From Escherichia coli (GTDB taxonomy: Bacteria; Pseudomonadota; Gammaproteobacteria; Enterobacterales; Enterobacteriaceae), in assembly GCF_001677475.2 (NCBI RefSeq), contig NZ_CP015229.1: 64,000 nucleotides of DNA; one strand, given 5' to 3'. The position numbers were made by a program, and so were the translations under genes. Positions 51,290 through 53,938 of this stretch are shown in pieces. Each line of letters begins with the position of its first letter. Positions within the stretch are counted from its first letter, which is position 1. The notes under the pieces were generated by a model. That model worked only from the letters and a program-made list of their open reading frames with translations, ran no database searches and had not been told where the DNA came from.

Positions 51290-53938
51290 TTATTGGTTAG
51301 CGGAGATAGCGACTGGCGGTGTACCCGGAGTGAGCTGCTGCGTCTGTTCCTGAATCACCGGTTTGATTTCCAGCGGAGTGGCAGGCTCCACCGCGCCTTT
51401 TTGCTTACACGGCAGTAACAGGCCGTTGAACAGATCGGCAGGCAGCGGGTCTGGCAGGGAGATCTCACAGTGGGAAGCCCCATTCCATGAGACACTCATA
51501 CGTTCGCCAGCTTTTACCCCGGCCAGATAGACGTTGCCGTCATCGTCAACCAGGCCGACCTGCTGGTCGTGTTCGTTTTTCACTTCTGCACCAAATGGCG
51601 GATAACTACCATCACTCATGCGCAGGACAGCCATCGCCTTTTGCCCACTGATGACCGCAAATTTACGGTAGCCAATGGCTCCTTCGGTGAGCGTCGCCTG
51701 AACCACTGACTGCGTGGCTTCGGCATTCTCTGGCAGTTTAGTCAGGTCAATAGTGGCCTGGTTACGGTAGTAGTTATTGACGTCCGCAATAACAGCTTTA
51801 CCGAACATGTTGGTGTACACCGCTGAACCGTTACCTTCGACCGGTACGTCAGCCACGCCGTCAGCGTCGATAAGCAGGCGCGTACCGCCCATGTTTTGAG
51901 TACGATGCAACGCGCCACCGTGCGCCGTTAACGTGGCTCCGCCTTGCAGCGACAAGCCGGCAGAAGTGTATTGCCCTTCATGGTAGTTAGCACTCAGATC
52001 CACGTGTGCCATTGAACCGTCATGGCTGTAATAGCCATCCACGCTGGAGTGATTTTCACTGCTGCCAACGTTTATCTGATAGTGGCTGGCGTCATCAATA
52101 CGGTTGAAGTATCCCACCTGACTGCTGTCTGAACCGCTACCGTAGTTGCCGTTGTAACTCACGGTGCTGTTATCACCCCACGGCATACTTAAGGAGATAT
52201 AGACGCCTTTGTCGGCGCTGTTGTCATACTCGTAGCGATAACCCGTCAGGGAGATACTCATGTTACGAATGCCGCCCATGTTAAAATAATGGGAGAGCAT
52301 GACGTTGTAGTTGGTCTGCTCCTCGCGATCCCAGTATGTATGACGCGTATAGTTCAGGTAAACAGAAACACCAACATCCCTGAAGTTCTGGTTATAGGTG
52401 GCGGTGTACATCTCTTTATCATTGCCGGCGCGAACCATTTCGCTGTCATTCGCGTCCAGATACTCGCTCATGGTCATATAGTTTTCTTCAGAGAAGCGGT
52501 ATCCGGCGAAGGTGACGCGGCTGTTTAGATCATCAAAGTCTTTGGAGTAACTGACGCGGAAAGAGTTACCGTCGAGCGTCCCCTTGCCGTAAGCGGTTGA
52601 ATCGTCAAGTCGGGTATGTGAGTGGGTAATATCAAACGCCATCGCGCCGAAAATGGAGAGATCGCGCCCGATGCCAAGCGCGGCAGACTGGTAGTTTTCA
52701 TCGCCCAGCGCCCCGCCGTACAGCGACCAGCCATTGGCTACCCCCCAGGACGCTTCACCACCGGAGAAGAATCCGCCCTGTACATGGTGTCCCCACTCCT
52801 GCGGGCGCCCCATCATCACTTTATAGCGCACCTGACCCGGGCGCGTCAGGAACGGCATGGAAGCGGTGCTGATGTCATACTCCTGCACCTGGCCGTTCAG
52901 CTCTTCAATGCGCACATGCAGCGTACCAGAGTTAAATTCACCGAGATCCTGAATACGGAATGGCCCGGCAGGCACCTGGGTTTCATAAATTATGCGCCCT
53001 GCCTGACTAACGGTGACTTTCGCCGCCGTATGCGCCACGCCGGAAATATCCGGAGCATAGCCGCGCAGGTTCGGCGGCAACATTTGATCGTCGGTGCTGA
53101 TGCTACCGCCGATGTAGTTAAAACCATCAAAAATATCAGAATCGAGGTAGTCTTCGCCGAGTGCCAGTTTGGCTTTCAGGCTCGGTAACGCACGCCAGGC
53201 GTAGTAACGGCTCCAGTCCCAGTTTCTCTCGGTGCTGTTATCCGTCTCTTCATCGTTACTGCGGGTATGCTGATAATCACTCTGCCAGTCGGCGCGCAGG
53301 CGCCACGGCCCAAGGTTAACGCCAACCGTACCATTTCCGCTGATGTCGTTGCTGTCATCGCCGCCATTTTCTTCGTGTCGGGTTTGGGCGTTGATGCTGT
53401 AATCGGCAATGAAACCGGGAATGCCATCATCCCAGCGTGAAGGTGGGTCCCAGTCTACATCGCTGTATTCAAGATAAGCCTGCGGTAAGGTGATGAGCAG
53501 TGCGAACTGACTTAAATCAGCACGTATTTCCAGACCGTCAAGTTGACCTGGTTTGAGGCATTTACCATCGCGATCCCATTGCAATTTTTGTGCAATATCT
53601 TCTTTAAAACCAAGCTGCGCCACCAGCTCTGGCGACAGGCAGGCGTAAGTTTTATTTTTATCGTTTTCTGACGCATACCAGTAAATATCATATTCATCAG
53701 GTAACGGCTGTTTATTTACCTGAACCTGTAAATTATATTTACCCGGTTCAACATAACCCTGGCTGGAAAAACGCTTCAGATCAATTTTCGTGTCGCCTTT
53801 TAATTCCAGAAAACGGGAATCAAACTGAATATCTTCGTCGGCCCAGGCATTGATATGGCATCCAGATATTGCCATAGCAACGCACCAGGGAAGCGCCCGT
53901 AAGCGGAAAAGGGAATGGTCAGGCATACACGTATCCAT
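51290..53938 (-). CDS. yfcU: Outer-membrane fimbrial usher, apparently intact
   Basis: Single uninterrupted 882-codon ORF with usher-family hallmarks (N-terminal plug region, beta-barrel, C-terminal domains). Confidence 0.88.
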   Translation of the reverse strand: MDTCMPDHSLFRLRALPWCVAMAISGCHINAWADEDIQFDSRFLELKGDTKIDLKRFSSQGYVEPGKYNLQVQVNKQPLPDEYDIYWYASENDKNKTYACLSPELVAQLGFKEDIAQKLQWDRDGKCLKPGQLDGLEIRADLSQFALLITLPQAYLEYSDVDWDPPSRWDDGIPGFIADYSINAQTRHEENGGDDSNDISGNGTVGVNLGPWRLRADWQSDYQHTRSNDEETDNSTERNWDWSRYYAWRALPSLKAKLALGEDYLDSDIFDGFNYIGGSISTDDQMLPPNLRGYAPDISGVAHTAAKVTVSQAGRIIYETQVPAGPFRIQDLGEFNSGTLHVRIEELNGQVQEYDISTASMPFLTRPGQVRYKVMMGRPQEWGHHVQGGFFSGGEASWGVANGWSLYGGALGDENYQSAALGIGRDLSIFGAMAFDITHSHTRLDDSTAYGKGTLDGNSFRVSYSKDFDDLNSRVTFAGYRFSEENYMTMSEYLDANDSEMVRAGNDKEMYTATYNQNFRDVGVSVYLNYTRHTYWDREEQTNYNVMLSHYFNMGGIRNMSISLTGYRYEYDNSADKGVYISLSMPWGDNSTVSYNGNYGSGSDSSQVGYFNRIDDASHYQINVGSSENHSSVDGYYSHDGSMAHVDLSANYHEGQYTSAGLSLQGGATLTAHGGALHRTQNMGGTRLLIDADGVADVPVEGNGSAVYTNMFGKAVIADVNNYYRNQATIDLTKLPENAEATQSVVQATLTEGAIGYRKFAVISGQKAMAVLRMSDGSYPPFGAEVKNEHDQQVGLVDDDGNVYLAGVKAGERMSVSWNGASHCEISLPDPLPADLFNGLLLPCKQKGAVEPATPLEIKPVIQEQTQQLTPGTPPVAISANQ

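Follow-up and report, generated by a model that had tools for sequence, protein, structure and literature searches.

The open reading frame (ORF) at positions 51,290 to 53,938 of a 64,000-nucleotide stretch of DNA from contig NZ_CP015229.1 (hereafter the window) is best read as an intact gene for the usher in the Yfc chaperone-usher operon, which is Stf-like and PapC-like, in an E. coli-like genome other than K-12. According to this reading, to which we assign a probability of about 90%, the allele is deeply divergent from that of K-12, the usher is kept by purifying selection, the amber codon in K-12 is private to laboratory strains, and the neighboring yfcV gene has been hit recently, so that a normal fiber is probably not made. 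Neither the gene nor the operon is new, the usher is in its usual uninterrupted form, and an identical protein is already public (ANO90128.1, deposited as E. coli).

Organization of the yfc locus

The genes in this region are arranged in the order prmB, smrB, yfcO-P-Q-R-S-U-V (on the minus strand), sixA, fadJ and fadI, which is the order of the E. coli yfc locus. The arrangement of the yfc genes and their smrB and sixA neighbors are common to the window, MG1655, E. coli C and strain 2013C-4282. A chaperone gene with PapD_N and PapD_C domains is located 20 bp downstream of the usher gene and is followed by three PF00419 subunit genes and a gene of the DUF2544 adhesin family, while the gene for the major subunit is located upstream (Table 1). 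Fimbrial types are defined by their position in the genome in combination with the usher phylogeny (Wurpel et al. 2013, PMC3559732). The usher is 85% identical in amino acid sequence to YfcU of the K-12 and C types, and its match to PapC is far closer than its match to FimD.

Apart from yfcV, every yfc gene is intact and matches its relatives in length. The best match to the chaperone in NCBIfam is the model for StfD from Salmonella, with a score of 337 bits against a cut-off of 447 bits. Since this is below the equivalog cut-off, the chaperone is the Escherichia counterpart rather than Stf itself. Another similarity to the Stf system in Salmonella is that the homolog of the putative adhesin is annotated as “StfH/YfcO family”. 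The gene for this adhesin is the most divergent in the operon, with 86% amino acid identity to the homolog in “E. coli E69” and about 45-50% to the K-12 and C types. The E. coli alleles share the terminator-like hairpin between yfcV and yfcU, and a paired C>T and G>A change in its two arms can be read from the alignment.

Table 1. Coordinates of the genes and sequence features of the yfc operon in the window.
Feature	Position	Strand	Length and state	Basis
yfcO-type (StfH/YfcO, DUF2544) putative tip adhesin	48098..48964	-	288 aa, intact	PF11245 DUF2544 in related locus L015
yfcP-type fimbrial subunit	48966..49505	-	179 aa, intact	ORF and homologs
yfcQ-type fimbrial subunit	49502..49990	-	162 aa, intact	ORF and homologs
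yfcR-type fimbrial subunit	49987..50502	-	171 aa, intact	PF00419 Fimbrial in L015; length equals that of the annotated gene in L001
yfcS-type periplasmic chaperone	50518..51270	-	250 aa, intact	ORF; the gene in L015, which is identical, carries PapD_N and PapD_C
yfcU-type fimbrial usher	51290..53926	-	878 aa from the conserved start, intact	882 aa if counted from the ATG at 53938 (maximal ORF)
Codon aligned with the K-12 amber codon	52199..52201	-	TAT, Tyr576 (878-aa numbering)	TAG at codon 579 in MG1655, TAC in E. coli C
Usher codon 149	53480..53482	-	CAG (Gln), intact	TAG at this position in L021 and in Pseudocitrobacter vendiensis (L005)
Terminator-like hairpin and T-run between yfcV and yfcU	53974..54001	-		12-bp stem with 7 GC pairs, followed by TTTTT
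yfcV-type major subunit	54009..54565	-	frameshifted; 7-bp deletion at about 54099/54098	alignment to three E. coli alleles

Reading frame and domain structure of the usher

In the ORF listing of the window, the usher gene is a single uninterrupted ORF of 882 codons, counted from the first in-frame ATG on the minus strand, and its translation contains the terminal stop alone. However, 882 codons represents the maximal ORF. Since the start at position 53926 is the one that is conserved across all homologs and chosen by the gene callers, the protein likely starts at this second in-frame ATG (MPDHSLF...) and is then 878 amino acids long. By eye, a GGATGGA element is seen a few bases upstream of position 53926, while there is no comparable element at position 53938. 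The 2,637 nucleotides of the gene could be aligned to five related usher genes without any gap, which shows that there is no hidden frameshift, and the protein aligns continuously with residues 2-806 of the 809 residues in PapC (7lhg_C, E-value 3.5e-221). The usher had been described in a first-pass annotation as one intact ORF of 882 codons, and this description is borne out, with neither a hidden stop nor a frameshift uncovered by the realignment. So long an ORF, matched to the usher family over its full length, is far beyond what could arise by chance.

The Pfam domains of the usher are PapC_N (PF13954) at residues 38-184 (model positions 1-146 of 146, E-value 1.8e-36), Usher (PF00577) at residues 202-760 (model positions 3-549 of 549, E-value 1.7e-185) and PapC_C (PF13953) at residues 771-827. 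The closest solved structure is that of PapC, the usher of the P pili (PDB 7lhg, 2vqi, 3l48), to which the protein aligns with no large gaps and with all domains matched. The constructs of the PapC barrel and plug (2vqi and 3fip) yield a continuous alignment, and residues 759-845 align to the structures of the C-terminal domain (3l48 and 2kt6). Thus, the plug, the barrel and the C-terminal domains, the completeness of which the first-pass annotation had marked for a check, are all present. The alignment to FimD is weaker (E-value about 1e-75). PapC differs from the usher in that it belongs to another operon and another locus, and in that it lacks a counterpart to the roughly 37 residues that follow the last cysteine in the usher and are conserved among the YfcU alleles. 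The usher also matches the NCBIfam model for the YfcU/StfC usher subfamily (NF011812.0, PRK15284) over its full length, with residues 1-878 covering model positions 1-881 of 881. The score is 1817.5 bits, where the curated cut-off lies at 972. The N-terminus (MPDHSLFRLRALPWCVAMAISGCHINAWA/DEDIQFD) resembles a signal sequence by eye, and the mature PapC protein aligns from residue 38.

The individual steps of the chaperone-usher pathway are well established for PapC and FimD. The usher in the window is an 878-residue precursor with a putative N-terminal signal sequence, a domain for docking of the chaperone-subunit complexes, a barrel with its plug, and C-terminal domains. By homology to PapC and FimD, it would be inserted in the outer membrane, where the N-terminal domain would bind the complexes formed by YfcS and the subunits. 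The usher would catalyze donor-strand exchange, and the fiber would be extruded through the barrel once the plug has been displaced.

Comparison with the yfcU pseudogene in K-12

The MG1655 record lists yfcU (b4661) as a pseudogene, and the first-pass annotation was correct on this point. The gene contains one internal stop, where TAC (Tyr579) has changed to TAG, and its length equals that of the intact gene in E. coli C. This mark of the K-12 pseudogene is absent from the usher in the window, which has a tyrosine at the aligned codon, and internal stops were not found anywhere in the gene. The suggestion that the K-12 lesion is absent here therefore holds for the codon itself, but the usher is not simply the K-12 gene minus its lesion. 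While the two genes share their position, the gene order smrB-yfcOPQRS-yfcU-yfcV-sixA, the length class and the domain layout, they are only 79% identical in nucleotide and 85% in amino acid sequence, with a dS of about 1.25, which places them in separate allelic lineages. YfcU of the E. coli C and BL21 type (WP_001300969.1, to which PGAP gives the name “fimbrial usher protein YfcU”) is intact and encoded at the same locus. It shows 80% nucleotide and 85.5% amino acid identity to the usher in the window, whereas the minor subunits of this type are 48-59% identical in amino acid sequence to those in the window or have no match.

A 61-nucleotide segment of the K-12 gene that includes the TAG codon has an exact match in 363 of the 5,426 complete E. 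coli genomes. The five of these genomes that were sampled in an evenly spaced listing were all K-12 strains or laboratory derivatives. The amber codon thus appears to be a lesion that is private to laboratory strains. Yfc has been described as a core-associated fimbrial type whose position in the chromosome is fixed, and no other type was intact in all 36 genomes studied (Wurpel et al. 2013, PMC3559732). Taken together, these data show that an intact usher is the rule in E. coli, and that K-12 with its single stop is the exception. The pseudogene status in K-12 is consequently unfit as the reference state of yfcU in E. coli.

A divergent allele at the usual site

The identity to MG1655, as estimated in a 1-kb sliding comparison, is about 97-99.9% over most of the window. 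It is 92-93% around 31 kb and at 41-43 kb, 87-92% at 57-59 kb, where fadJ and fadI are located, and 69-81% over the yfc operon (48-54.6 kb). The operon in the window is a deeply divergent allele at its usual site in an E. coli-like genome. Its low identity to MG1655, as compared to about 98% across most of the window, shows that the window is not MG1655, in agreement with the earlier view. The immediate flanks of the operon show 94-97% identity to the best match in E. coli. With flanks of this kind, another Escherichia species was considered as the source of the window, but this was rejected because the low identity is local to the yfc operon and its flanks. The first 20 kb are 98.8% identical to E. 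coli, and most of the window is about 98% identical to MG1655.

The usher gene is most similar to that of CP089930.1 (“E. coli E69”), with 97.3% nucleotide and 98.6% amino acid identity, followed by strain 2013C-4282 (89.7% nucleotide identity), Pseudocitrobacter vendiensis (89.1%), E. whittamii (87.9%) and the K-12 and C types (79-80%). CP089930.1 is also the nearest species-representative genome across the locus, at about 96%. Divergence is far greater in the minor subunits and the YfcO adhesin than in the usher, and the operon shows a mosaic pattern. Among the RefSeq complete E. coli genomes, the maximum identity to the usher gene is 89.8%, in about 21 genomes, and the allele was not found at more than 90% identity. 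The K-12 and C type is about 80% identical, and 687 of the 5,426 genomes have no megablast match to the usher, but such identity bands are unfit for counting allele classes, as the K-12 type falls exactly on the limit between two bands, at 80%. Exact copies of the protein are present on at least 24 public contigs, and DNA identical to the locus was identified in GCA_016118665.1, GCA_018682815.1 and GCA_018683295.1. When proteins are clustered at 90% identity, the usher falls in a group of 420 sequences that come from E. coli, E. fergusonii, unclassified Escherichia and Pseudocitrobacter.

The window illustrates two points that have been published, namely that the yfc genes are highly polymorphic, with only 52-59% amino acid identity between SE11 and MG1655 (PMC2608844), and that the yfc gene trees are in conflict with the core-genome phylogeny based on MLST (PMC4850163). 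The depth of the allelic divergence is of mild interest, although it too has been published.

Frameshift in yfcV and lesions in other lineages

The first-pass annotation was also correct in that yfcV is frameshifted. The alignment to three E. coli alleles reveals a 7-bp deletion, owing to which the ORF (54077..54565) encodes 162 amino acids, as compared to 187 amino acids in the intact protein from E69, and the C-terminal sequence “NFKAWLVG...TTFQITYL” is lost. Pilin subunits need their last C-terminal strand to fold on the chaperone, and the truncated YfcV product is thus very probably non-functional. A sequencing or assembly artefact could be rejected as the cause of the deletion, since the truncated protein is found on 13 contigs from separate assemblies. 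In the collection, 403 blocks list the intact yfcV of this very allele, as compared to these 13 contigs. Moreover, a related locus with an intact yfcV (L023) differs from the window by a single SNP and the 7-bp indel over 8,564 bp. Judging from this close relative, the deletion is recent, and it is a minority form.

Because yfcV is broken, a normal fiber is probably not made in the window's strain despite the intact usher. Either there would be no fiber or, at most, a short fiber that consists of the minor subunits and the adhesin. The truncation of YfcV may also leave the usher without its major-subunit substrate in this strain. In the annotation of the locus, the usher should be given as an intact gene of the Yfc type, and the neighboring yfcV as a frameshifted pseudogene.

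The suggestion that the operon carries different lesions in different lineages is supported by examples. In addition to the deletion in the window and the amber codon in K-12, an amber codon is present at codon 149 in two other backgrounds, and insertion sequences have disrupted the operon elsewhere. In E. coli 2018-05-2CC, which contains IS3 and ISApl1 insertions, most of the operon has been lost and yfcV is frameshifted.

Selection on the operon and origin of the allele

The dN/dS ratio of the usher is 0.05-0.09 in all eight comparisons (Nei-Gojobori). In the comparison with E69, the closest allele, the ratio is 0.053 (dN 0.0059, dS 0.111), while dS to the K-12 type is saturated, at about 1.25-1.5. 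The chaperone is 100% identical in amino acid sequence to that of E69 despite a dS of 0.04. These values carry the signature of purifying selection and suggest that the usher has not been under long-term relaxed constraint. Along with the very recent lesion in yfcV, the low ratio also indicates that the lesions are young, have arisen at the tips of the tree and are not the outcome of long-term decay. The idea of relaxed selection on a cryptic cluster, as put forward in the first-pass annotation, is therefore unsupported for the usher. A version of it in which the operon is dead and the usher has simply escaped damage so far would account for the frameshift in yfcV, for the independent lesions (amber 579 in K-12, amber 149 in L021 and Pseudocitrobacter, IS3 and ISApl1 in 2018-05-2CC), for the genomes without a megablast match, and for the description of the operon as cryptic under laboratory conditions (PMC3559732). 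However, we consider it improbable given the dN/dS ratios and the identity of the chaperones, and also given that the intact form of yfcV in this allele is so much more frequent than the truncated form, that an intact relative is only one SNP away over 8.5 kb, and that the stop in K-12 is apparently confined to laboratory strains. It is somewhat less doubtful, but still unlikely, that the usher remains at work in this strain and exports a short fiber of YfcP, YfcQ, YfcR and the YfcO adhesin that lacks the rod. Such rod-less short fibers have been reported for P pili without the major subunit PapA, and the usher is PapC-like. Furthermore, yfcV alone is damaged, while the six other genes in the operon are intact and of the same lengths as in the relatives. 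Yet, the roles of YfcV as the rod and YfcO as the tip are assumed solely from the gene order and the annotation, and the lesion is too young to show whether the remaining genes are maintained.

For the origin of this divergent allele, it is an even bet that it came from another Escherichia lineage through homologous recombination, in which case the intactness of the usher would stem from exchange of the whole locus and not from vertical descent. This would explain why identity to K-12 drops over the operon while the remainder of the window is about 98% identical, and why divergence is raised in the flanks, with smrB at 91% and fadJ at 87-92%. Transfer between lineages is also consistent with the taxonomic span of the 90% usher cluster, with the published discrepancies between SE11 and MG1655 and between the yfc trees and MLST, and with the mosaic pattern, as exemplified by E. 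whittamii, in which the usher is 88% identical to that in the window while the minor subunits are only 65-69% identical. However, the loci at hand give neither the donor nor the direction, and ancient alleles kept within the species would look alike. Moreover, E. coli C and MG1655 already differ by 4% in the flank from aroC to smrB, which indicates that the region is generally polymorphic. A broader scenario, which we regard as speculative and rather unlikely, is that yfc represents a long-lived hotspot of polymorphism, in which old allelic lineages (dS >1) are exchanged together with divergent flanks among E. coli, E. fergusonii, other Escherichia and Pseudocitrobacter. The recurrent recent knock-outs, among them the shared CAG to TAG change at usher codon 149, would then reflect episodic selection against the fiber, for example by immunity or phages, rather than neutral decay.

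A recurrent amber codon at position 149

The recurrence of an amber codon at position 149 is also of mild interest. The same change from CAG to TAG is found in L021 (GCA_012374395.1), where the variant is rare, and in Pseudocitrobacter vendiensis. The two changes are independent, since the codons that flank position 149 are different in the two ushers and the genes differ by 11% at the nucleotide level. The usher gene has 311 possible one-step nonsense changes, of which 79 are transitions, and these counts lead one to expect a match in roughly 1/79 to 1/311 of pairs. A coincidence at codon 149 is thus unlikely but not extraordinary.

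Lesions in the yfcV and usher genes

The major subunit gene of the window encodes a product of 162 amino acids that lacks the C-terminal strand owing to a deletion of 7 bp (Table). The truncated form of yfcV is found in 13 contigs, and the same allele in its intact form is listed for 403 blocks. A relative with the intact gene differs from the window by only one SNP across 8.5 kb.

In E. coli 2018-05-2CC (L017, NZ_AP027877.1), the strain that best matches the first 20 kb of the window, the yfc operon (L017:11712-15697) is largely destroyed: yfcV is frameshifted, a remnant of 84 bp is all that is left of the usher, and transposase genes of the IS3 family and ISApl1 have been inserted.

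The usher is interrupted by an identical nonsense change, CAG to TAG at codon 149, in GCA_012374395.1 (L021) and Pseudocitrobacter vendiensis. The two backgrounds are 11% divergent, and the codons flanking codon 149 differ between them. A total of 311 one-step nonsense changes are possible in the usher gene, 79 of which are transitions. The shared change could represent a parallel loss of function, or else be due to chance.

Coordinates of the features in the yfc operon.
Feature	Position	Strand	Remark
Usher C-terminal tail, ~37 aa	window 51290-51403		residues about 846-882
Usher codon 149	window 53480-53482		CAG
Usher codon 149, L021	L021:5091-5093		TAG, from CAG>TAG
Terminator-like hairpin and T-run	window 53974-54001	-	separates yfcV from the usher gene
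yfcV-type major subunit gene	window 54009-54565	-	7-bp deletion, junction ~54099/54098

Conserved features of the operon

The hairpin is kept across the E. coli alleles, and its two arms carry compensatory substitutions at one base pair: they read CCCTC/GAGGG in the window and CCCCC/GGGGG in E. coli. Hairpins that set the ratio of subunit to usher transcripts have been described in other fimbrial operons, and by analogy the hairpin may serve this role here. The tail of the usher, which starts after the last cysteine, is rich in proline and glutamine and is conserved among the YfcU alleles (IKPVIQEQTQQ.TPG..P..ISANQ), whereas PapC, the usher of the P pilus, contains no counterpart.

Mosaic identity and related loci

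The window is about 98% identical to MG1655 over most of its length, but only 87-93% identical in patches at 31001-32000, 41001-43000, 47001-48000 and 57001-59000, located around folC/dedD, mnmC, smrB and fadJ/fadI. This mosaic pattern of sequence identity suggests recombination tracts, with the strongest signal beside the yfc operon.

The ushers of E. coli C and MG1655 differ at 108 of 2,646 nucleotides (4%). Their aroC-smrB flanks are also 4% different, while the sixA-fadI segments are 99.5% identical. Judging from the identities of yfcP, yfcQ and yfcR between the window and each of E. coli C and K-12, the minor subunit genes of the two strains are of different types.

Fragments of Escherichia-type yfc ushers and flanking genes, with nucleotide identities of 72-91%, were also present on short contigs (L011, L013 and L014) of the MAG “Collinsella sp. 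Map_57_008” (JAIJJM01). Collinsella is an actinobacterium, and these contigs most likely represent contamination of the bin.
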